Virus record (IMG/VR): IMGVR_UViG_3300042542_006078
DNA length: 64,000 nt
Direction: 5' to 3' (one strand)
From: a virus
Taxonomy: Duplodnaviria; Caudoviricetes
Within the stretch, counting starts at the first letter, position 1; the number at the start of each line of letters is the position of its first letter. Below the pieces are notes generated by a model that did no database searches, was not told the DNA's origin, and worked only from the letters and a program-made list of their open reading frames with translations. This document shows positions 50,063 through 63,935 of this stretch, piece by piece. A program made the position numbers and the translations under genes.

Positions 50063-53000
50063 TTAGCTGGATGCGCTTTCTTTCCACTTCTCCCAGAACC
50101 TTGTGTTACTAATCATTTCTTGATAAGTGTGCTTGGCAAATCGCCTGTTCAAACGACCTTTTCTAATTCCTGATATTCTTACCACTATTTCAACTTGCTT
50201 GTTCTTCAGGTCTTCTCCAATAGCCTCAACAACCAAAGAATTCTTGGAAATGTAAGCCCCAACCAAAACTGGTGATGAACCAACTGCGCTTGTCACCTTG
50301 ATAGTGTCTTTTTCACAAACCTGTATGAATCTGTCATCAAGGAATGTCAAAATTGTATCACGATCAAGGCCACTTCCTCCAACCTTTACTACCATAATGT
50401 CTTCAAACCTTACCTCTGGCATCTCAACGCAAATTAGTTCGACATATTCCTCATAACCTTGTGATGTTACAACTGGAAGAATCGCATACTTGTCTCCCTG
50501 TGATCCTTGTGATCCCTGTGATCCCTGTGATCCCTGTGCGCCCGCAGAGCCTTGAAGACCACCAGAAGAACCTTGGTAGCCAGATTGTCCCTGTGCGCCC
50601 GCAGAGCCTTGAGACCCACTAAACCCATTTTGACCTTGATAACCAATATTCCCCGGATTTCCCTGATATCCAACAGCGGGAGGCATAACAAGAATATTCA
50701 AATTTTGATTATTTGAAGGAAGAGCTAAAGAACCAGAAACCAAACCAACAGGAACTACCCAATAACCACCAGCAGAAGATGGAAAATTGGTAACTTGATA
50801 AACATAAATTATACTTCCGCTACCATTTTCTTGAATATAAATGTAAGAGCCATAAGTTCCTCCTACAACAGGATAAATGAAAAGATTACCAATAATACTG
50901 TTTAAGTTATTACCAAAAACATCTAAGTTATCAATGTAAATTTGAGAGACTGCGGATGGATCAGAAGGATGGTTAAATCTCAAATATCCTTGACCGGGAT
51001 CAGAGTTTGTAGTCGATGTGCTAAACTGATACTTGATTCCACCCTTGTCTCCAAGACTACCCTGATTGCCCTGATTTCCCTGATTGCCTTGCGATCCTTG
51101 AAATCCTTGTAAACCAATTGAACCTTTAGGAGCAAACATGATGCTCAATGACTGACCATTTGTGGGAACTGTACCAGATAATCCAGAAACAGGGATCTTG
51201 TAATATCCAGCAGCAACTATAATTGTTCCAACTACAGTAAATGTGACTATAGTATTGCCAGCATCATTTCCAGCAACATAAATGTATCCAGCATATCCAT
51301 CTAAAATACTATAATTCAGATCAAATGTTGTAATCCATCCAGCTTGATTAATGCTATTTGCATCTGTATTGCTAATGTATATGAATAAAATACTTGGAAT
51401 GGAAGCATTGCTAAATCTAACATATCCACTACCGGGATTTGTATCGCTTACTAAATTGCTAAATGTATACTTTACGCCGCCTTTATCACCAATTCCTTGA
51501 TTGCCCTGATTTCCTTGAGCGCCCTGAAATCCTTGAAATCCAATATTACCTTGATATCCTTGAAGTCCTTGAAGACCTTGATGGCCTTGGAATCCATCAG
51601 CAGGGCCTTGGAATCCTTGATTTCCTTGGTTGCCTTGAGCGCCTTGGAATCCATCAGGAGTTCCTTGATAACCTTGCTGACCTTGGTTTCCTTGATTACC
51701 TTGTTCTCCCTGATGACCTTGCTGACCTTGATTGCCCTGATTTCCCTGATGTCCTTGATATCCGTCAGCAGGGCCTTGGAATCCTTGATTGCCTTGGTTT
51801 CCTTGGTGACCCTGATTTCCTTGATTGCCTTGGTTTCCTTGGTGACCCTGATTTCCTTGATTGCCTTGGAATCCTTGATCGCCTTGGTTTCCTTGGCGAC
51901 CTTGATTGCCTTGGTTTCCCTGATTGCCTTGGTTTCCTTGACGACCTTGGTTTCCTTGGTTTCCCTGATTGCCTTGGTTTCCTTGACGACCTTGGTTTCC
52001 TTGACGACCTTGGTTTCCTTGATACCCTTGATAGCCACCACCTTGATATCCTTGTGATCCTTGATATCCTTGTTGTCCTTGATAACCCTGATATCCTTGT
52101 TGTCCTTGATATCCTTGTTGTCCTTGATATCCTTGTTGTCCTTGATAACCCTGATATCCTTGTGATCCTTGGTATCCTTGTGATCCTTGGTTTCCTTGGT
52201 TTCCTTGGTTGCCTTGGTTTCCTTGACTTCCCTGATTTCCCTGTTGTCCTTGAAGTCCTTGATAACCTTGATATCCTTGTTGTCCTTGGTATCCTTGGTA
52301 TGCTTGATAGCCTTGATATCCTTGAAAACCCGATGATCCCGATGATCCTGCTAGACCTTGGTATCCAAGATCTCCTTGATAACCAATGTTTCCTTGATTT
52401 CCCTGATTTCCTTGTTGCCCTTGATATCCAATTAGTCCTTGAAGACCAATAAAACCTTGGTTTCCTTGGTTTCCTTGGTTTCCTTGGTTTCCTTGATTTC
52501 CTTGATTTCCTTGGATGCCTTGTGGTCCTGCATTTCCTTGATATCCTTGTTCTCCAAGAATGCCTTGTGGTCCTAAAGGACCAGCAATTCCTTGGGGTCC
52601 AGTTATACCTGTCTGACCTATAAGACCCTGTTCTCCCTGTTCGCCTTGCTCTCCCTGAGGGCCTTGACTTCCTGTTGAGCCTTGTCTTCCTTGATTTCCT
52701 TGCGATCCTTGGTTTCCTTGTGTTCCTTGATATCCAATATTTCCTTGATAACCAATTAGCCCTTGATTTCCTTGTTGTCCTTGGTTTCCTTGGTTTCCTT
52801 GTGATCCTTGATATCCAATATCTCCTTGATATCCTTGATCTCCCTGATTTCCTTGTCTGCCCTGATTTCCTTGGTTACCTTGATTGCCTTGGCGACCTTG
52901 ATTTCCTTGCGATCCTTGCAGGCCAATATCTCCTTGATATCCTTGTTCGCCTTGATTTCCTTGTTCGCCCTGATATCCTTGATCTCCTTGTCTTCCTTGC

Positions 53001-53938
53001 CTTCCCTGTCTTCCTTGGTTGCCTTGCGATCCCTGCGATCCTGTATCGCCTTGTGATCCAGTTAATCCCTGAATGCCTTGATATCCTTGTAAACCAAAAT
53101 CACCTTGATTTCCTTGTAAACCAATTTGGCCTTGATAGCCAATTTGGCCTTGATGGCCTTGGCGACCTTGATTTCCCTGTCGTCCTTGGTTTCCTTGAAC
53201 TCCCTGTAGACCTAAAATTCCTTGGTATCCTTGTCTTCCTTGGAATCCCTGAAGTCCTGTTGTTCCTTGATTGCCTTGTAATCCTGTTCCAATAGAGCCC
53301 TGTAGGCCTTGAACTCCTGTTATTCCTTGGTTTCCTTGACTGCCAGATGTTCCTTGGAATCCTTGATTGCCTCTTCCTCCTTGCAATCCTTGAAGTCCAG
53401 TCGCTCCTTGAACACCTTGTGCGCCATCTCCTCCTTGGTTGCCCTGACTACCTTGAAATCCTGCTCCAATTACACCTTGGAAACCTTGATTGCCTTGCTC
53501 GCCCTGATATCCAGCACCTTGAGTTCCTTGATTGCCTTGATTTCCTTGAATGCCTTGTAGACCTTGATTTCCTTGTTCTCCTTGCTCTCCTTGGTATCCT
53601 GCTGGTGTTCCTTGATAACCAACAATTCCTTGCAATCCTTGAAGACCAACTACACCTTGGCGACCTTGATTTCCTTGGTTTCCTTGTGATCCTTGTACTG
53701 TGCTTGGCGAACCTTGGGCTCCTTGTGATCCTGCTCTTCCCTGTTGGCCTTGTAGACCTTGTGATCCGGGTGTGCCTTGCGAACCTTGAGGGCCTGTTAT
53801 ATCTTGTCCAATATTTGCAGAAACAACAAAATCACGCAAATCTTGTGCTGAAATGCCACCTTGATTGTTATCGGCAAATATGCACAATAACTCCTCTTCG
53901 GTCCTGAAAGTTCCAGATTGGTTGCATTGATTTGCCAT
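50063..53938 (-). CDS. Collagen-like fibre protein (Gly-X-Gln), with two inserted globular domains
   Basis: Long G-X-Q triplet tract; two GDKGG[VI]KY-F domains; C-terminal [11 protein letters not shown] domain. Confidence 0.85.
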   Translation of the reverse strand: MANQCNQSGTFRTEEELLCIFADNNQGGISAQDLRDFVVSANIGQDITGPQGSQGTPGSQGLQGQQGRAGSQGAQGSPSTVQGSQGNQGNQGRQGVVGLQGLQGIVGYQGTPAGYQGEQGEQGNQGLQGIQGNQGNQGTQGAGYQGEQGNQGFQGVIGAGFQGSQGNQGGDGAQGVQGATGLQGLQGGRGNQGFQGTSGSQGNQGITGVQGLQGSIGTGLQGNQGTTGLQGFQGRQGYQGILGLQGVQGNQGRQGNQGRQGHQGQIGYQGQIGLQGNQGDFGLQGYQGIQGLTGSQGDTGSQGSQGNQGRQGRQGRQGDQGYQGEQGNQGEQGYQGDIGLQGSQGNQGRQGNQGNQGNQGRQGNQGDQGYQGDIGYQGSQGNQGNQGQQGNQGLIGYQGNIGYQGTQGNQGSQGNQGRQGSTGSQGPQGEQGEQGEQGLIGQTGITGPQGIAGPLGPQGILGEQGYQGNAGPQGIQGNQGNQGNQGNQGNQGNQGFIGLQGLIGYQGQQGNQGNQGNIGYQGDLGYQGLAGSSGSSGFQGYQGYQAYQGYQGQQGYQGYQGLQGQQGNQGSQGNQGNQGNQGNQGSQGYQGSQGYQGYQGQQGYQGQQGYQGQQGYQGYQGQQGYQGSQGYQGGGYQGYQGNQGRQGNQGRQGNQGNQGNQGNQGRQGNQGNQGNQGNQGRQGNQGDQGFQGNQGNQGHQGNQGNQGNQGHQGNQGNQGFQGPADGYQGHQGNQGNQGQQGHQGEQGNQGNQGQQGYQGTPDGFQGAQGNQGNQGFQGPADGFQGHQGLQGLQGYQGNIGFQGFQGAQGNQGNQGIGDKGGVKYTFSNLVSDTNPGSGYVRFSNASIPSILFIYISNTDANSINQAGWITTFDLNYSILDGYAGYIYVAGNDAGNTIVTFTVVGTIIVAAGYYKIPVSGLSGTVPTNGQSLSIMFAPKGSIGLQGFQGSQGNQGNQGNQGSLGDKGGIKYQFSTSTTNSDPGQGYLRFNHPSDPSAVSQIYIDNLDVFGNNLNSIIGNLFIYPVVGGTYGSYIYIQENGSGSIIYVYQVTNFPSSAGGYWVVPVGLVSGSLALPSNNQNLNILVMPPAVGYQGNPGNIGYQGQNGFSGSQGSAGAQGQSGYQGSSGGLQGSAGAQGSQGSQGSQGSQGDKYAILPVVTSQGYEEYVELICVEMPEVRFEDIMVVKVGGSGLDRDTILTFLDDRFIQVCEKDTIKVTSAVGSSPVLVGAYISKNSLVVEAIGEDLKNKQVEIVVRISGIRKGRLNRRFAKHTYQEMISNTRFWEKWKESASS

Positions 53939-53952
53939 CTTAGATTCCCTGT

Positions 53953-56289
53953 TTATTTCCAGCTATTCCAGAAATTGTTGTTCTTAATCATTTCTTCGTA
54001 AGTGTGAGTAAAGAATCGTCCTTTGACACCAATTCTTATTCCAGATAATCTCAATATTACTTTTACTTTTTCATTTTCAAGAAAATCACCATGAGCCTCG
54101 ATTAATACTTTGTCGCCATTAACATCTACTCCTGCCGATATAGGTTTTGATGTTACTATTCCAGTAACAATAATTGAGTCTTGTTCACAAACCTTGATAA
54201 ACTTTTCTTCAATTTGATGACTTTCCTTGATTACATTAGTTCCATTTCCACCTATATGAATAATCATGATGTCTTCAAATCTTACTTCTGGCATCTCGAC
54301 ACATGACAAAGCAACATACTCTTCATTGTCTTCGTAGCGAAGAGTAATAATTGCATTTTTCACACCAGCCGGACCTTGCGATCCTGTTGGCCCCTGATAT
54401 CCTGCTCGTCCTTGGCGACCTTGTACTCCCGCAATTCCTTGTCTTCCTTGAATTCCTTGTCTTCCTTGGTGTCCCTGATTTCCTTGTAATCCTTGTAATC
54501 CTTGACGGCCTTGAAATCCTTGACGGCCCTGATTGCCTTGATAGCCTTGGTTGCCTTGGTTGCCTTGATTTCCTTGATTTCCTTGATTTCCTTGATTTCC
54601 TTGACGACCCTGATTTCCTTGACGACCCTGATTTCCTTGATTTCCTTGACGGCCTTGATTTCCTTGATTGCCTTGATTTCCTTGATTTCCTTGACGACCT
54701 TGGTTTCCCTGATTTCCCTGATTTCCTTGATTTCCTTGGAATCCTTGATTTCCTTGATTTCCCTGATTTCCCTGATTTCCTTGGTTGCCTTGGTTGCCTT
54801 GGTTACCTTGGTTACCTTGGTTGCCTTGGTGGCCTTGATTTCCCTGCTCTCCTTGACGACCTTGGTTTCCTTGATTGCCTTGGTTACCTTGATTGCCTTG
54901 GCGACCTTGATTGCCTTGATGGCCTTGGTTGCCTTGGTTCCCCTGATTTCCTTGGTTGCCTTGACGACCTTGATTACCTTGACGACCTTGATGGCCTTGG
55001 TTGCCTTGGTTTCCTTGGTTTCCTTGATATCCTTGTGGACCTTGATTTCCTTGACGGCCTTGATTTCCTTGATTTCCTTGACGGCCTTGGTTGCCTTGGT
55101 TTCCTTGGTATCCTTGTGGACCTTGATTACCTTGATTTCCTTGGCGACCTTGATTACCTTGATTTCCTTGGCGACCTTGATTGCCTTGGCTACCTTGGTT
55201 TCCAATAAATCCTTGAAGACCAATAAGACCTTGGTTGCCTTGATTTCCTTGATTGCCTTGTATTCCTTGTCTTCCTTGATATCCTTGTCTTCCTTGATGC
55301 CCTTGTCTTCCTTGATATCCTTGATCTCCCTGACTTCCTTGTGGTCCAGCCGATCCAACAACTCCTTGTCTTCCTTGAGATCCTTGTTGTCCCAAAACGC
55401 CTTGACGGCCTTGGCTACCTTGTATTCCTTGTCTACCTTGAAAACCCTGACTACCTTGTCTTCCTTGGTGTCCTTGATATCCCTGTTCGCCTTGATTTCC
55501 TTGGTTTCCTTGTGAGCCTTGATTTCCTTGGTTTCCTTGTGAGCCTTGAAATCCTGCGCCCTGAAAACCTTGATATCCTCCAACTGTCCCTTGAAATCCA
55601 ATTGATCCTTGTCTTCCTTGTGATCCTTGATTGCCCTGAGATCCAGTTCCTTGATAACCTTGAAAACCTCTGAATCCGGCAGAACCTTGTCTTCCTTGAT
55701 TGCCTTGTACTCCTTGCGCTCCTTTTCCTCCTAATGAACCTTGAAGTCCTTGAAGACCTTGTAGTCCCTGAGCGCCATCATATCCCTGATATCCTTGATT
55801 TCCTTGGAATCCAGCACCTTGGACACCTTGATTTCCTTGTTGTCCTTGTACTCCAATATTTCCTTGAAGACCTTGAAGACCTTGAAGACCAAATCCTTGA
55901 AGACCTTGATTTCCTTGCTCTCCCTGTTCGCCCTGATATCCAGCAGGAGTGCCTTGAAAACCAAGAATTCCTTGAAGGCCTTGAAGGCCAACTATTCCTT
56001 GGTTTCCTTGTATACCTTGGTTTCCTTGATTTCCTTGTGGACCCGGCACAATACTTGGATCACCTTGGGCTCCTTGTGATCCTGCTCTTCCCTGTTGGCC
56101 TTGCAGGCCTTGCGATCCGTGGGCACCTTGTGATCCTTGTGGACCTGTTATATCTTGTCCGACATTCGCAGAAACAACAAAATCACGCAAATCTTGCGCT
56201 GAAATACCGCCTTGGTTGTTATCAGCAAATATGCACAATAACTCCTCTTCGGTTCTTAAAGTTCCAGATTGATTACATTGATTTGCCAT
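53953..56289 (-). CDS. Collagen-like fibre protein (Gly-X-Gln), paralog
   Basis: Near-identical N-terminus [10 protein letters not shown]..., (GNQ/GRQ)n tract, same [12 protein letters not shown]-terminal domain. Confidence 0.85.
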
Positions 56290-57884: not shown

Positions 57885-58826
57885 GTGCGTCATTTCCTCT
57901 CCATATCCGACTTGTCAAAAGATGAAATTGAATTAATTTTAGACATTGCAAACGAAATCGAAAGAAATTGGTCTTTTTGTCGCAACATGAACAACAAGTG
58001 CATAAGTAGTTTTTTTGCCGAGCCGTCAACAAGAACAAGATTTAGTTTTGAAAGAGCTATGCATTGGTTGGGTGGTCGTGTTATCACGGCTGCTGACGCT
58101 TCATCAAGCAGTAGCTTGACAAAAGGCGAAAGCTTGAAAGACACTTTCAGAACTCTTGGCCAATATTCCGATGCTATTGTAATGCGACACCCAGATCAAA
58201 AATGGCCTGAAATAGCAAGAAGTTATTCAAGAGTTCCTGTTATAAACGCTGGTAGTGGTTCTGGAGAACATCCAACACAAGCTCTTCTTGACCTTCACAC
58301 TATTAAACAAAAGTGGAATGACATTTCTGGACTCAAGGTTCTTCTCTGCGGCGATCTTAGAAATGGAAGGACAATTCACAGCCTTATTGAAATACTTCAT
58401 CTTTATAAATGTAACATTTTTTATTGTGCTGCGACCGATTATAAAAATTGTGACTTGTCTATACCAGAAAAATATTTAGAAAAAATTCCTTGCCGTAATG
58501 TTGAAATATCAGATGCCAATGATATTCTTCCTGAAATTGATGTCATTTATATGACAAGAATACAGAAAGAAAGGTTTAAGGGAGTTTGCGATAATCTTGA
58601 TTTTTTCAAAATAACCAAAGAAAATATTGGAAGAGTAAAGAAAAATGCGGCTATTCTTCATCCATTGCCTAGAAATGAGGAAATTAGTGAAGACATAGAT
58701 GATGATCCTCGTGCTGATTATCATGAAAGACAAGTAAGAAATGGTCTTTATATTCGCACGGCTTTGCTTAATTATCTTCTTTATCCAACTCCTATGCATA
58801 GGCCATCTTGTGATGGAATTAATTAA
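57885..58826 (+). CDS. pyrB: Aspartate carbamoyltransferase catalytic subunit
   Basis: EPSTRTRFSFE, KGESLKDT, INAGSG..EHPTQALLD, GDLRNGRT, TRIQKER, HPLPR, RQVRNG. Confidence 0.96.
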   Translation: MRHFLSISDLSKDEIELILDIANEIERNWSFCRNMNNKCISSFFAEPSTRTRFSFERAMHWLGGRVITAADASSSSSLTKGESLKDTFRTLGQYSDAIVMRHPDQKWPEIARSYSRVPVINAGSGSGEHPTQALLDLHTIKQKWNDISGLKVLLCGDLRNGRTIHSLIEILHLYKCNIFYCAATDYKNCDLSIPEKYLEKIPCRNVEISDANDILPEIDVIYMTRIQKERFKGVCDNLDFFKITKENIGRVKKNAAILHPLPRNEEISEDIDDDPRADYHERQVRNGLYIRTALLNYLLYPTPMHRPSCDGIN

Positions 58827-60311: not shown

Positions 60312-60934
60312 ACATTCAGGTCAAAATTAATTTTCTTGTAGTCTTCTTCCGTGAATAGTTTTTTCACGAAAGGACTTATTGCAAGATAATATGGAGAAAT
60401 CTTACCAAGATTGATCCATCTGAATATATTGTTGTTGATATATGATTCCTTATACTTATCAAAATTCACATCAGGTCCAAATGTCTTAACAATAAATTCT
60501 TTGGTCTTCTCAATACCTTCCAAAGCTTTTTGTATACCAACTCCAGTAACCTCAACCGTGTCCTTAGGATTATTTCTGACCTGATCGTATTTTTTCTTCC
60601 AAAGCTTCCATCTTTTCCAAGCCTTTTCTCCCACCAAACAATTTGGATCAATCAATGGATGATCATTATCACGGTTGATAGCTTTAAGAATATCAAGCTG
60701 GGCTCTGATATAAAGAGGATATTCTTCTTTGGTCAGAATACCATTTGTTTCACGAACTAACTTATAAGCAATTTTGAATATAAGTGATTTGCGTGGATCG
60801 CCTTTTTTCATAGTGGCGTGACGATAGTCTGGAAATTTTTTGCGACTCTGTTCGAGCCACATTGAAGCTATATGGCAAGCCTGAGTTTCAAGCTCATCCA
60901 TCTCATACTTCTCAGCAGACTCGATGATCCACAT
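60245..60934 (-). CDS. Hypothetical protein
   Basis: Likely start MWIIES at 60934 after AGAGGA. Confidence 0.65.
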   Translation of the reverse strand: MWIIESAEKYEMDELETQACHIASMWLEQSRKKFPDYRHATMKKGDPRKSLIFKIAYKLVRETNGILTKEEYPLYIRAQLDILKAINRDNDHPLIDPNCLVGEKAWKRWKLWKKKYDQVRNNPKDTVEVTGVGIQKALEGIEKTKEFIVKTFGPDVNFDKYKESYINNNIFRWINLGKISPYYLAISPFVKKLFTEEDYKKINFDLNVYLPCIDESVLARFRSLFSFEA

Positions 60935-61004
60935 GAAATTTTCCTCTTTTTTTTCGTGCTTCATCATACTCCTATACCTCAAGCGACTCAAGGTTATTTA
61001 TCCC

Positions 61005-61892
61005 ATGAAAATTGCAATGTGCCCACTAGTAAGCAGAGATCTTCCAAAAGCTATCAGAGCAACCAATTCTTGTAGAAATCAATTTCCAACTGAACAATTT
61101 CAAGTTGAAACAGTTGCAATTGTTAACTCAAAGAATCAAGAATTCATAGATGAGTTCTGCTCATGGTGCGAATCTGAACAAGTAAAATATGTCATTACTG
61201 AATCAAATGGAACACCAAGCAGAGGAAAAAATAGCGTTCTTCAGTTTCTTAGAGACTCGGACTATGACGGAGTAAGCATGACAGATGGAGATGATTTAGT
61301 CTATCCAACTGGAGCTTTGCAAATTGAAAGACATCTTCTTCACCATCCAACCACAGATGTTTTGATAGTTAAGCCTTCTGATCAAGTTACAAACCATGAA
61401 TCATATGGAAGTGTTCAAATTAAAGAAGGAAACTATGCTGTTTGTTGGGGTATGAATATTGTTAAGTTGGGATATACTTATGGTCCCGGTAAAAGCGAAA
61501 TATTTAATTCAGGACATTTTGCAGCAAGAAATTTAGGAGGACATGTTTTTTATAGCAAGAAGGTTGCACAACTTGTTCAATATGATGAAGAACAATTGTT
61601 GGGAGAAGACTTGCTTTTAGAATTTAATCTTCTCAAGCTTCATCAAGAAAGAAAAATATGTTTTTGGTTAAGTTTTGCAAGTGATGTACAGATGCTAGAC
61701 AGAACTGAGCAAGAAAGTATTCAATATACAAAGAATGGAACAGATGGGGCTCAATCTTTTGAAAGGTTAATTCAAAAAGTGAGAGAGATATTGCCTGAAG
61801 ACAGAAGTTCATTTGATGAATTGCCCGTAGAGTTCCCAGAATTGTTATTTTCACATGGCGAAAAAATTGAATGGTTGAAGCAAGTTTTTTGA
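61005..61892 (+). CDS. GT-A fold glycosyltransferase-like protein
   Basis: ESNGTPSRGKNS, DGDD (DxD), GEDLL; start MKIAMC at 61005. Confidence 0.65.
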   Translation: MKIAMCPLVSRDLPKAIRATNSCRNQFPTEQFQVETVAIVNSKNQEFIDEFCSWCESEQVKYVITESNGTPSRGKNSVLQFLRDSDYDGVSMTDGDDLVYPTGALQIERHLLHHPTTDVLIVKPSDQVTNHESYGSVQIKEGNYAVCWGMNIVKLGYTYGPGKSEIFNSGHFAARNLGGHVFYSKKVAQLVQYDEEQLLGEDLLLEFNLLKLHQERKICFWLSFASDVQMLDRTEQESIQYTKNGTDGAQSFERLIQKVREILPEDRSSFDELPVEFPELLFSHGEKIEWLKQVF

Positions 61893-61899
61893 AAATTGA

Positions 61900-61928
61900 T
61901 TGCAAAAAAGAATCTAAGTGATTACAAT
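61900..61928 (+). promoter_or_regulatory. Putative sigma70 promoter driving the non-coding region
   Basis: TTGCAA (61900-05)-17 nt-TACAAT (61923-28). Confidence 0.65.
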
Positions 61929-61934
61929 AAGAAA

Positions 61935-62447
61935 TGGCTAAGGGTAATTCTCACTCATTCCGCTCACAAGGTGTTATGAGTTAAGCCCAAAGCAAAGACA
62001 GAAGAAGGTTTCGCACTTAAAGACTTTCATCGTGATTGTCGCCTTTAATGTCTTTGTTGTCAAACCTGCGAGGCCCTTACCAAGGGTGGGTCTTTGTAGT
62101 TGTTCTACAACGAATGCTTTAACGGGAAGCATTGTACTCGCAGCAGCAGAGGTCAAGCCGGATAGAAATGATGCTGACTCTCAAGAAAAACCCCTGTAGT
62201 TTGTTTTGCAAAAAGCAAATGAGAAATGGAAAATTCTTGAGCTATTCGGTTTTAGGTTTGCTGCAAATAAAAGTGCGCCATCTGACTCAATCCCAAGAAG
62301 TTATTGCTGGAGTAAATAGGTTTAGTAAACAAGAATATGGCTTAAACGCCAAAAAATTGCTCTACTAAACAAGTTTACTCAATATCTCACTTTTAATGTG
62401 ATATATACAGCAATAACCATTTGGGTCAGCATCCCGTTCTAGTTTTT
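61935..62447 (+). ncRNA. Large structured non-coding RNA candidate (about 510 nt), class unknown
   Basis: No convincing ORF; upstream promoter; more than a dozen nested helices whose G-U pairs favour the plus strand; T run at 62443-47. Details under findings. Confidence 0.65.
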
Positions 62448-62507
62448 GATTGTAAATAAAAAAAACAAATTACCTAAATTAACAAATTTTTGCATAATTT
62501 AACATGA

Positions 62508-62536
62508 TTGACCTAACTGCTTTTTTCGGCTATAAC
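62508..62536 (+). promoter_or_regulatory. Putative sigma70 promoter for the polymerase gene
   Basis: TTGACC (62508-13)-17 nt-TATAAC (62531-36). Confidence 0.7.
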
Positions 62537-62597
62537 CTGACGAAGAATTAGCCTTCACTCACAGAGTGACGGAAAATGGCCTACAAGCTGGTGATTC

Positions 62598-63935
62598 ATG
62601 TATTTTGACTCTTTGTCCAAGTTGCTCTGTCAAATCGAGCGTAAGCCCCTTTTCTTGCGATTTAATCCCACTCCTTTTGATTTCACGGACAAGGATTCAG
62701 TCAATGAGATGCAATTCTTTCTTCCTGATGGTGTCACATTTCAAATTTTGCTCAAGGATGAATCTTTGCCTTTGGTTTTGAGTATGTTGCAGTTGTCTGT
62801 TTTTTCTGGCGACAACAAAGTCTTCGCATGGGATTGGAAATCATTTATTTCACATGTTCTTGCAAAGACTGGCAAGTTATATTCTATTGAATCATCTGTT
62901 GTTGATCTTAAGATTTTAGAAAGTTACAACGGAATCAAGAAATCATGTCCTGAGACATTTGTTGAGTGTTTTAACAGAATAAAGTATTTGGTATCATCTG
63001 GTCTATGGAAAGACTGTGAAAATATTTACAAGAAGATTCATTTGCCTTTGATGACAAATGTCATTCCTTATTTGGAAACAGTAGGCATTCTTGACTTGAA
63101 TGCTGGCAAGAAGGTTCATGCTCATTATGAGATTGATGGTCAGGAGAATGGCAGATTAAGATGTCACAATGCTTTTAAGAATGGTTTTGTGCCACATGCA
63201 ATGGGATCGGATATCAAGGAGAAGTTGAAGCCTGTCGGCTATGATTCTCTTTTCATGGCTTTTGATTACAAGGGCATGGAAGCGTTTGTTCTTGCCTATT
63301 TGAGCAAAGACGAAAGGTTGATGAGTTTTTGTCAGGAAGAGGACATTTATGCTTCTTTGGCAAAGTCATTATTTGGATCGAATTCTGAAAAAATTGATCG
63401 TGAATTGGTGAAAAAATGTTTTTTGCCGGTTATATATGGACAGTCGGCCCGTTCTCTTTCTTTGCGTTGCGGAATGGCTGCTGATGTCGCAGAAGGCGTT
63501 GTGGAACGAATTAGTTCTTTGTTCAATACTGCGCTTTCATTCGTTGCTGATTGTGAAGAAAAAGTAAAACAAAATGGATTTGCCAAAGATGTTTTTGGTA
63601 AAAGAAGAAACAACTTTGAGTTAGGCAAGGAATATTTAGCCAGAAACTTTGCTGTGCAATCACCCGCATCAACGATATGTCTTGAGAAACTTATCAATCT
63701 TCATATTTCCATACAAAACTTAAATCAAAGCTTGAAGGATAAGGCTCAAATTTCTTATACTGTTCATGACGGTTATGTTTTGTATGTTACGAAGGATAAT
63801 TGGAAACAAGTTTACAAGAGAAGTATGGAAGCATTGTGCGGAGAATCCGAGCTTTGTCCCGGTCTGCGACTGAAGGTTTCATGTCGTGGAGGGAGAAACC
63901 TGAATGACCTGAAAATGATTAAAGATCGAAAGTGA
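62598..63935 (+). CDS. Divergent family A DNA polymerase, apparently lacking the thumb
   Basis: NGRL, motif A FDYKGMEA, motif B RELVKKCFLPVIYG, GKRR, NFAVQSPAS, motif C TVHDG. Confidence 0.85.
   Translation: MYFDSLSKLLCQIERKPLFLRFNPTPFDFTDKDSVNEMQFFLPDGVTFQILLKDESLPLVLSMLQLSVFSGDNKVFAWDWKSFISHVLAKTGKLYSIESSVVDLKILESYNGIKKSCPETFVECFNRIKYLVSSGLWKDCENIYKKIHLPLMTNVIPYLETVGILDLNAGKKVHAHYEIDGQENGRLRCHNAFKNGFVPHAMGSDIKEKLKPVGYDSLFMAFDYKGMEAFVLAYLSKDERLMSFCQEEDIYASLAKSLFGSNSEKIDRELVKKCFLPVIYGQSARSLSLRCGMAADVAEGVVERISSLFNTALSFVADCEEKVKQNGFAKDVFGKRRNNFELGKEYLARNFAVQSPASTICLEKLINLHISIQNLNQSLKDKAQISYTVHDGYVLYVTKDNWKQVYKRSMEALCGESELCPGLRLKVSCRGGRNLNDLKMIKDRK

Follow-up and report, generated by a model that had tools for sequence, protein, structure and literature searches.

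Non-coding gap upstream of a minimal family-A DNA polymerase gene

The question raised by this locus was what occupied a 705-bp stretch free of genes (61893–62597) in an otherwise gene-dense piece of phage DNA. The stretch lay in the window, i.e., the whole 64-kb sequence analysed from IMG/VR virus record IMGVR_UViG_3300042542_006078, which had ~38% G+C, was dense with genes, and was judged to be phage DNA from the genes it encoded. The gap was flanked by an open reading frame (ORF) ending at 61892 and a DNA polymerase ORF starting at 62598, and it contained only short ORFs, none of which was conserved. An original prediction, made from the letters of the sequence, had placed in a 700-bp gap at this site a promoter-driven, multi-domain structured RNA, about 500 nt long and read from the plus strand. 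All the strings it named were located where it had put them, including TTGCAA at 61900 and TACAAT at 61923 separated by 17 nt; the gap was real, the multi-domain plus-strand RNA was borne out in agreement by shuffles, homologues, and covariation (see below), and the promoter stood as a predicted one of sigma-70 type with 9/12 consensus matches. The element was thus annotated as a non-coding RNA (ncRNA) gene of ~530 nt (61934..62470, plus strand, both ends predicted) on the basis of folding-energy z-score, nhmmer homologues, and negative Rfam results. This RNA was structured and conserved, lay on a defined strand at a fixed position before the polymerase gene, and matched no known family. It is the founding example of an RNA family so far seen only in a single clade of huge phages (genome size, ~430–480 kb), and it is very probably genuine, i.e., a structured ncRNA that has its own promoter and belongs to a new family.

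The minimum free energy of 61930–62450 on the plus strand was −162.2 kcal/mol versus −124.7 ± 6.5 kcal/mol in 100 dinucleotide shuffles (z = −5.75, 0/100 as good), indicating structure far beyond chance and agreeing with what had been expected from the sequence; the minus strand of the same region gave z = −4.12. About 24 G-U cells would become A-C on the opposite strand, as argued in the original prediction, and the plus strand was fixed by these G-U cells together with the promoter orientation and the folding energies.

Homologues and linkage to the polymerase gene

Related loci were gathered in IMG/VR via the flanking proteins plus two conserved DNA patterns, and a polymerase alignment used as the query added further loci from IMG/VR, JGI metagenomes, and GTDB genomes. 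Iterated nhmmer, down to E = 1e-21, found the RNA in ~65 loci, which gave 36 distinct full-length sequences; a 13-kb contig of a metagenome-assembled genome (MAG) contributed one more, and the 37 distinct RNA sequences were spread over ~50 metagenomic contigs. In every case, the RNA lay on the same strand as the polymerase gene and directly upstream of it, 50–140 nt before the start codon. Among relatives whose polymerases were ≥40% identical (L073 and L110, with short gaps, being left out), the RNA was found upstream of the polymerase gene in all except one lineage, and this exceptional lineage carried a divergent RNA in the same slot. In relatives whose polymerases were ≤36% identical, including a 595-kb GenBank phage, a protein gene abutted the polymerase gene without the RNA. 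There was one copy of the RNA per genome, as judged from three long contigs searched with the model. The 322-aa ORF upstream of the RNA was absent in several lineages, where the RNA followed a divergently transcribed gene; this ORF was thus gained or lost without separating the RNA from the polymerase gene, indicating that the RNA travels with the polymerase gene and not with that ORF. The homologues expected upstream of the polymerase gene were accordingly present, with compensatory changes in helices and in both predicted long-range contacts (see below).

The nucleotide identity of the RNA to its homologues was 0.54–0.76 versus 0.62–0.72 for the polymerase gene; that of the multiway junction (see below) was 0.71–0.88, and five of six pairs had a higher value for the junction than for the polymerase gene, the most distant pair being the exception. 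No conserved reading frame was found in the RNA, the longest stop-free stretch ranging from 45 to 121 aa among homologues. A coding or chance origin was excluded by compensatory changes together with indels that were not multiples of three. No similar DNA was matched in 50,697 GenBank phage records (blastn, distant mode), and the nearest virus record (G001) was without the RNA region.

The 13-kb MAG contig (RXKI01000130.1) belonged to a MAG labelled Neisseriaceae bacterium AWTP1-37 and contained both the polymerase gene and the RNA. It alone matched the polymerase clade in a set of 185,579 species-representative genomes (GTDB); it probably came from a phage and was binned into a betaproteobacterial MAG, and it was the sole hint of a host.

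A sister lineage (L047:740-1500, L049, L051:770-1330, and L096), whose polymerase was 52% identical to that of the window, had a conserved, structured RNA of ~600 nt in the same slot (z = −3.4, with compensatory changes between L047 and L051). It had only short motifs in common with the main family (AAAAACCU, AGGUCAUCGCUG, and GUGUAAAUCAGAAAG), and the junction model failed to detect it; this RNA was either a strongly remodelled member of the family or a replacement.

Comparative tests of base pairing

Column covariation on MAFFT alignments of 36 sequences recovered few helices, with distant lineages out of register, and RNAalifold on the MAFFT alignment of Domain 4 (A7) predicted nothing because of the same loss of register. 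A test tolerant of misalignment was therefore informative: for each sequence, the duplex energy of its two segments with one another was compared to that with foreign partners in 2000 permutations. The negative controls, four in all, did not outperform foreign partners, and those made from two pairs of unrelated segments were flat. None of the 2000 permutations reached the observed value for the three long-range pairings (PK2, PK3, and PK4), stem Pb, stems P4a, P4b, P4c, P5a, P5b, and P5c, and the hairpin 62382/62398 (see below). A proposed tertiary contact between UUUAGG at 62251 and the loop CUUAAA at 62341 was rejected (1279/2000 permutations).

Multiway junction and clamp helix

The multiway junction (62068..62141, plus strand; covariance model R1, 28 loci), corresponding to Domain 3 of the original prediction, was composed of a closing stem (GCGAG 62068–72/CUCGC 62137–41) and three hairpins, H1 (62073–87), H2 (62099–111), and H3 (62113–33, loop 62119–27), all on the plus strand, and the closing stem and three hairpins proposed earlier were each supported by conservation. 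The second hairpin existed with its register shifted by one, the conserved pairing being GUUG 62099–102/CAAC 62108–111. H2 was missing in L059, the L070 lineage, and L106 plus its relatives, and the junction was thus three-way or four-way depending on lineage.

RNAalifold on a structure-unfitted MAFFT alignment of 17 junction sequences gave 24 pairs, 16 of which had compensatory double changes. Covariance model R1 was built from this 17-sequence alignment and detected the domain in 28 loci. In the R1-fitted alignment, 98.7% of cells were standard pairs versus 78.3% in shuffles, 20 of the 24 pairs were changed on both sides, and the observed measures were reached by 0/500 shuffles; sliding the partners by 1–3 columns lowered pairing to 36–43%.

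A helix unseen in the original prediction was found by RNAalifold on the unfitted alignment: ACCU 62064–67 paired with AGGU 62150–53 (62064..62153, plus strand). It clamped the junction domain and crossed stem P4a. A C-G to U-A double change was observed in seven of 24 distinct sequences, every cell was paired, and 0/2000 permutations reached the observed value.

Long-range pairings

Two of the long-range pairings corresponded to contacts already proposed (62121/62433 and 62170/62423), and both were upheld by covariation. PK2 (62121..62438, plus strand) joined AACGGG 62121–26 in the H3 loop to CCCGUU 62433–38; its 4-bp core was CGGG/CCCG (n = 11), CGAG/CUCG (n = 12), CAGG/CCUG (n = 2), or CAAG/CUUG (n = 11), being an exact complement in 36/36 sequences (own −7.64 versus foreign −4.70 kcal/mol). 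PK3 (62172..62431, plus strand) joined UGCUGACUC 62172–80 in the internal loop of Domain 4 to GGGUCAGCA 62423–31 (own −9.47 versus foreign −6.31 kcal/mol), with the variants GGCUG/CAGCC, UGCAGA/UCUGCA, GCCGACUU/AAGUCGGC, GCCG/CGGC, GGUU/AACC, and GGGU/ACCC. PK3 and PK2 were contiguous on the 3′ side, where they made up one 16-nt strand (62423–38).

The third pairing, PK4 (62012..62277, plus strand), had not been seen earlier; it joined CGCACU 62012–17 in the loop of the 5′ hairpin Pc (see below) to AGUGCG 62272–77 between Domains 4 and 5 (own −8.39 versus foreign −5.51 kcal/mol), with the variants CGUACU/AGUACG, GUACCC/GGGUAC, GUAUC/GAUAC, UGUGCU/AGCACA, and UAUGCU/AGCAUA.

Domains 4 and 5

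Domain 4 (62143..62264, plus strand) was a long stem with a variable tip, and its three predicted stems were all conserved in the own-versus-foreign test: P4a (62143–49/62258–64; −7.57 versus −3.70 kcal/mol), P4b (62155–65/62242–52; −10.86 versus −4.74 kcal/mol), and P4c (62180–87/62234–41; −2.53 versus −0.96 kcal/mol). P4a and P4b were also retained by RNAalifold on 14 close homologues.

Domain 5 (62300..62417, plus strand) contained P5a (62300–09/62408–17), P5b (62310–17/62373–80), and P5c (62320–27/62363–70), i.e., the three inner stems of the earlier proposal, together with the plus-strand hairpin 62382–90/62398–406 and a small plus-strand hairpin GGC-UUAAAC-GCC (62339–50) retained by RNAalifold. 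The outermost stem of that proposal, CTGACTCAA 62282/TTGGGTCAG 62421, was not conserved: it was strong in the window sequence only (−12.1 kcal/mol), and across homologues it gave own −3.62 versus foreign −3.08 kcal/mol (72/2000 permutations). A switch between two folds, which had been suggested with reserve, relied on the competition of this pairing with the contact at 62172/62423; since the latter was conserved and the former was not, such a switch was left without comparative support.

The loop UUAAAC 62342–47 contained the self-complementary UUAA, and many homologues had GUUUAAAC; this feature was not kept in all lineages. Judged from its sequence, the UUAA loop could in principle mediate a kissing dimer, which is speculative.

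5′ region and lineage-specific parts

The 5′ domain (61994..62055, plus strand) consisted of stem Pb enclosing hairpin Pc. Pb paired AAAGACA 61994–62000 with UGUCUUU 62049–55 (plus strand; own −5.08 versus foreign −1.40 kcal/mol), and Pc paired AAGG 62005–08 with CCUU 62042–45 (plus strand), being placed by homology to AGGUnUCGUACUACCU in the alignments. The Pc loop held CGCACU 62012–17, the PK4 partner, plus a lineage-specific 23-nt insertion (62019–41). This arrangement replaced the two pairings originally assigned to Domain 2: AGGTTT 62006/AAACCT 62062 was not conserved (1020/2000 permutations), and AAAGAC 62019/GTCTTT 62050 involved the lineage-specific insertion, the conserved partner of UGUCUUU being a different one. 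As for the hairpin assigned to Domain 1 (ACUCAU/AUGAGU, 61953..61981, plus strand; proposed at 61953/61976), its complementary segments were present, but it was an insertion specific to the lineage of the window: it was found only in the window and the identical contig L001, and it was absent from the other homologues (alignments A1 and A3).

Most other lineages started ~40 nt further upstream with a terminal hairpin, often having a GAAA loop, followed by a compact H-type pseudoknot of the form CUGAG-A-UGGGCA-CUC-NNN-UGCC, which covaried by eye, variants being GGG/CCC with GGAG/CUCC and GAUG/CAUU with GGGG/CCCC. In the lineage of the window, the 5′ UGGC(A) appeared by eye to pair with the segment just before AAACCUG.

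Promoters and 3′ end

The predicted sigma-70-type promoter of the RNA (61900..61928, plus strand; 9/12 matches) was composed of −35 TTGCAA 61900–05, a 17-nt spacer, and −10 TACAAT 61923–28. It ended 6–8 nt before a conserved AUGGC, at which the RNA was predicted to start (~61934–36). The four closest lineages had TTGAC(A/T)-16/17-TA(T/G/C)AAT at the same place, where it overlapped the stop codon that ended the upstream ORF and scored 10–12/12 matches; other lineages also had a promoter, displaced upstream by ~40 nt relative to the first conserved element. With this predicted promoter of its own, the RNA thus has the appearance of a separate gene.

Two candidate promoters of the polymerase gene (62479..62536, plus strand) followed the RNA: TTAACA-18-CATGAT 62479–508, found by scan, and TTGACC-17-TATAAC 62508–36, found by eye. 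In nearly every homologue examined, a TTGnnn-16/17-TATAcT-like site was present between the RNA and the polymerase start, these sites being consensus matches only; those in L003 (3914–41), L044 (1466–93), and L051 (1411–39) were confirmed by scan.

A conserved motif GAUUGUAAAU (62448..62457, plus strand; consensus GAUUGUAMA), with an invariant ATTGTAAA in alignments A1–A3, was located at the 3′ side. In some lineages, an AT-rich hairpin had the motif as its 5′ half and was succeeded by a U run, and the motif thus marks the probable 3′ end region; L003 had a perfect 16-nt palindrome plus U7 after the RNA (by eye). That GATTGTAAAT, the 3′ motif, recurs as a phage promoter or operator was rejected (12 matches versus 11.2 expected in the window).

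Comparison with known RNAs

Large bacterial and phage RNAs with complex tertiary folds include those of the ribosome and RNase P, group I and II introns, tmRNA, OLE, GOLLD, ROOL, HEARO, and raiA; to our knowledge, nearly all such RNAs proved to be ribozymes, ribonucleoprotein cores, or unexpected RNA-only architectures, and the class is rare. At the gathering score of Rfam 15, no match was obtained for the whole window or 20 homologue loci, as the original prediction had anticipated in seeing no tRNA, tmRNA, RNase P, or intron core. With E up to 10 (61700–62700) or up to 5 (15 loci), only chance matches to snoRNAs and a flavivirus stem-loop were found outside or across the RNA, and no weak match recurred among homologues. 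Full-text literature searching found no published description of this RNA.

Individual families were likewise negative. (i) ARAGORN found no tRNA or tmRNA in the window, the tmRNA models of Rfam were negative, and the RNA had no acceptor or T-arm and no tag reading frame. (ii) RNase P RNA had no Rfam match, and no P4-type helix with GGAAAGUCC or ACAGAA..GGCUUA was seen on sequence inspection; AGAGGUCAAGCC at 62148 paired locally within Domain 4 and with ACCU 62064, and it was not P4-like. (iii) The P3–P9 core of group I introns had no Rfam match at E up to 10, Domain V/VI of group II introns had none either, and the gap contained no ORF for a reverse transcriptase. (iv) The covariance models of GOLLD (RF01998) and ROOL (RF03087) matched neither the window nor the homologues (cmscan, Rfam 15). 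An intron interrupting a gene was rejected on both sides: the upstream ORF had its own stop at 61892 and was absent in many lineages, and the polymerase ORF was complete from its own ATG and aligned from residue 1 with RNA-less relatives.

The closest systems were compared by architecture and setting. tmRNA and RNase P RNA, both rich in pseudoknots and encoded by huge phages or their hosts, shared the size class (350–500 nt) and several pseudoknots with this RNA, and tmRNA, which sits beside smpB, also has its partner gene adjacent. Riboswitch aptamers (cobalamin) and the T4 gene 32 and gene 43 operators resembled it in being upstream on the same strand and in combining a multiway junction with a loop-to-3′-strand pseudoknot, whereas this RNA was 2–3 times larger, had a candidate promoter before the gene, displayed no conserved alternative fold, and was Rfam-negative. 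ColE1 RNA II and T4 oriF/oriG resembled it as host-promoter-driven structured transcripts of hundreds of nt tied to a PolI-type polymerase or an origin, and A+T-rich DNA also followed the RNA here; they differed in that primer RNAs are not known for covariation-supported pseudoknotted tertiary folds, which this RNA had, and the GC-skew support for an origin at this locus was weak. GOLLD and ROOL came to light in metagenomes of lakes or the rumen, and tRNA genes are the typical neighbours of GOLLD. The likeness to these two lay in a length of several hundred nt, many helices and pseudoknots kept by covariation, and carriage by phages, while their architecture was different and this RNA was fixed upstream of a family-A polymerase gene. 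tRNA genes gave no pointer to an RNase P function or a link with tRNA: none were found in the window or in G002, and G004 had ten, none of them near the RNA. The function of GOLLD and ROOL is unknown, and they form RNA-only complexes (PMC12286853).

Proposed function and its alternatives

A fold with multiple pseudoknots under strong selection, a predicted promoter of its own, and strict linkage with a replication module (see below) together argue for a trans-acting RNA, from which we infer a role most likely in replication. A host-type sigma-70 promoter would probably drive transcription from ~61934, and the RNA would fold into five domains locked into a compact particle by the clamp helix 62064/62150 plus the three long-range pairings: the 16-nt 3′ strand (62423–38) would zip onto the H3 loop and the Domain 4 internal loop, and the 5′ hairpin loop would pair with the strand between Domains 4 and 5. 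Such a particle may act in trans as the RNA partner or scaffold of a protein, as an RNA-only assembly, or as a catalyst, and it would most likely serve the replication module it heads, in the manner of tmRNA beside smpB. The combination of a new-family ncRNA, a replication function, and a trans-acting mode is held at a level close to, yet short of, an even balance, and a function concerning replication, taken as a claim of its own, is put forward a little more tentatively. A more specific version, in which the minimal PolA, lacking an exonuclease, has the RNA as its obligatory partner (a subunit or scaffold of a replicase ribonucleoprotein, or an origin specifier or primer) or else a new natural ribozyme, is doubtful; if an obligatory PolA partnership were true, this clade would replicate via an RNA-dependent DNA polymerase machinery undescribed in viruses of bacteria.

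Several points weigh against the replication proposal or the evidence behind it. Gene order was conserved over the whole region in these phages, so that a position next to the polymerase gene says little about a functional link. No protein was identified as a partner, and no RNA-binding, RNase H, or exonuclease assignment was obtained for the neighbouring proteins (Pfam, PHROGs, and Atlas). The own-versus-foreign permutations ignore sequence relatedness, which the flat controls mitigate and do not remove, and the model-fitted junction alignment leans toward structure, with which the unfitted alignment agrees. Both RNA ends are predictions from sequence, and by scan criteria no G+C-rich terminator was found between the RNA and the polymerase gene in the window, L003, L044, and most lineages; there being no convincing terminator, read-through into the polymerase gene, and hence a leader role, is possible.

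The same structural evidence would equally fit a trans-acting RNA unrelated to replication, such as a GOLLD/ROOL-like assembly, a host-takeover RNA, or an anti-defence decoy, whose position merely reflects inherited gene order. The syntenic neighbourhood, in which adjacency need not mean function, speaks for this, as does the precedent of GOLLD and ROOL, which are also without known function and form RNA-only complexes (PMC12286853); the UUAAAC loop (62342–47) could in principle kiss a second copy, speculatively. Yet the RNA and the polymerase gene stayed paired where the upstream gene was gained or lost, the RNA vanished exactly where polymerase identity dropped to ≤36%, and the palindromic loop, which an assembly might use, was not in all lineages, so that a non-replication role is considered unlikely while deserving serious attention. 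Nearly the same judgement, and a shade less favourable, applies to the idea that the polymerase mRNA begins with a very long 5′ leader, made by read-through from the promoter at 61900, whose fold would act in cis on polymerase expression like a riboswitch or as an autoregulatory operator. Its constant placement on the same strand 50–140 nt upstream of the polymerase start, the missing terminator in the window, L003, and L044, a pairing of a junction hairpin loop with a 3′ strand that resembles the one generally known from large aptamers such as cobalamin, and the hairpin 62555–69 in the short 5′ untranslated region (UTR) of the polymerase gene would all suit a leader. On the other side, a second, candidate sigma-70-like promoter preceded the polymerase gene in nearly every lineage examined, and polymerase expression would thus not need the upstream promoter; a hairpin plus U7 directly followed the RNA in some lineages; the sole alternative pairing (62282/62421) was not conserved; no Rfam riboswitch matched; and the RNA had 430–530 nt with four long-range pairings. 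It is 2–3 times larger than any riboswitch known to us.

A transcript of a replication origin, acting as a persistent hybrid or as a processed primer extended by the family-A polymerase in the way of ColE1 RNA II or T4 oriF/oriG, is distinctly improbable. It would account for a sigma-70-driven RNA of ~500 nt followed by a very A+T-rich segment (62447–62520) before a module of PolI-type polymerase and helicase, and for the GC-skew setting of the locus in the window, G002, and G004, where the cumulative curve had a local minimum 1–6 kb to the left of the locus and began a long rise there (minimum at 56 kb in the window; minimum at 144–146 kb with the RNA at 148.8 kb in G002; rise from 69 kb with the RNA at 70.2 kb in G004). 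The skew argument is countered by several details: the minima of the window and G002 lay several kb from the RNA and came after a stretch of strongly negative skew, the negative stretch of the window coincided with two minus-strand collagen-like genes and a switch of gene orientation, and the left arm in G004 was flat rather than falling. Neither iterons nor a G-rich hybrid-forming tract was seen, and the primer RNAs known to us neither need nor show pseudoknotted tertiary folds maintained by covariation. Last, a known RNA in disguise (group I/II intron, RNase P RNA, tmRNA, GOLLD, or ROOL), a decayed gene, or chance complementarity is hardly credible: size and richness in pseudoknots are alike, SPO1-like polymerase genes carry group I introns, and tblastn matches of the polymerase included SPO1 gene 31 with its exon junction, but Rfam and ARAGORN were negative, no gene was interrupted, and compensatory changes were accompanied by non-triplet indels.

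Under the preferred reading, a trans-acting RNA most likely serving replication, the fixed place before a stripped-down family-A polymerase offers a concrete hypothesis of an RNA working with the phage replisome or origin. This RNA represents a further class of large structured RNA, with ~430–530 nt, a multiway junction, at least three long-range pairings, and a clamp helix crossing P4a, all kept through extensive sequence change, and the family occurs in uncultivated huge phages of ~0.45 Mb. The 37 distinct sequences suffice for a seed alignment. Even if the link to replication were false, the family would add to the short list of ornate RNAs with open function.

Phage and neighbouring genes

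The polymerase gene (62598..63935, plus strand) encoded a minimal family-A DNA polymerase of 445 aa with the polymerase domain only (Pfam DNA_pol_A, 5.3e-30; PHROG DNA polymerase families), and its residues 172–427 aligned with residues 559–821 of Taq polymerase. Its closest relative in GenBank phages was that of the 595-kb uncultured huge phage (33% identity). Related metagenomic contigs were up to 381 kb; CheckV completeness was 52% for a 225-kb related contig and 79% for the 381-kb contig, which gave the genome size of ~430–480 kb. In relatives, the replication module had the order minimal PolA, a conserved 183-aa ORF, and a DnaB-like helicase. The conserved protein of 183–188 aa (e.g., L007:3776-4327) was always 3′ of the polymerase gene in all relatives and was assigned to no family, its single weak Atlas lead being a sigma-70 region 2 cluster (rank 19).

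A small plus-strand hairpin UCACUC-ACA-GAGUGA (62555–62569) preceded the start codon of the polymerase gene by ~30 nt, within the short 5′ UTR, and might function as a translational operator.

The ORF upstream of the RNA (60924–61892, plus strand, 322 aa) was without Pfam or PHROG family. Its Atlas neighbours included glycosyltransferase family 2 clusters, which is a lead only, and the Atlas record began at residue 28, by which the true start was probably 61005.

The gene set of the window included tail-fibre-like proteins, ribonucleotide reductase, SbcC-like nuclease, helicases, two collagen-repeat proteins, and aspartate carbamoyltransferase. The two very large collagen triple-helix repeat proteins were encoded by adjoining minus-strand genes, 50063–53938 (1291 aa) and 53953–56289 (778 aa), which coincided with a strong local GC and AT skew dominating the cumulative skew curve of the window. 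The aspartate/ornithine carbamoyltransferase gene (57885–58826, plus strand; Pfam OTCace_N and OTCace) encoded a protein with 78–84% identity to its counterparts in close related phages and 39% to that in the 595-kb GenBank phage.

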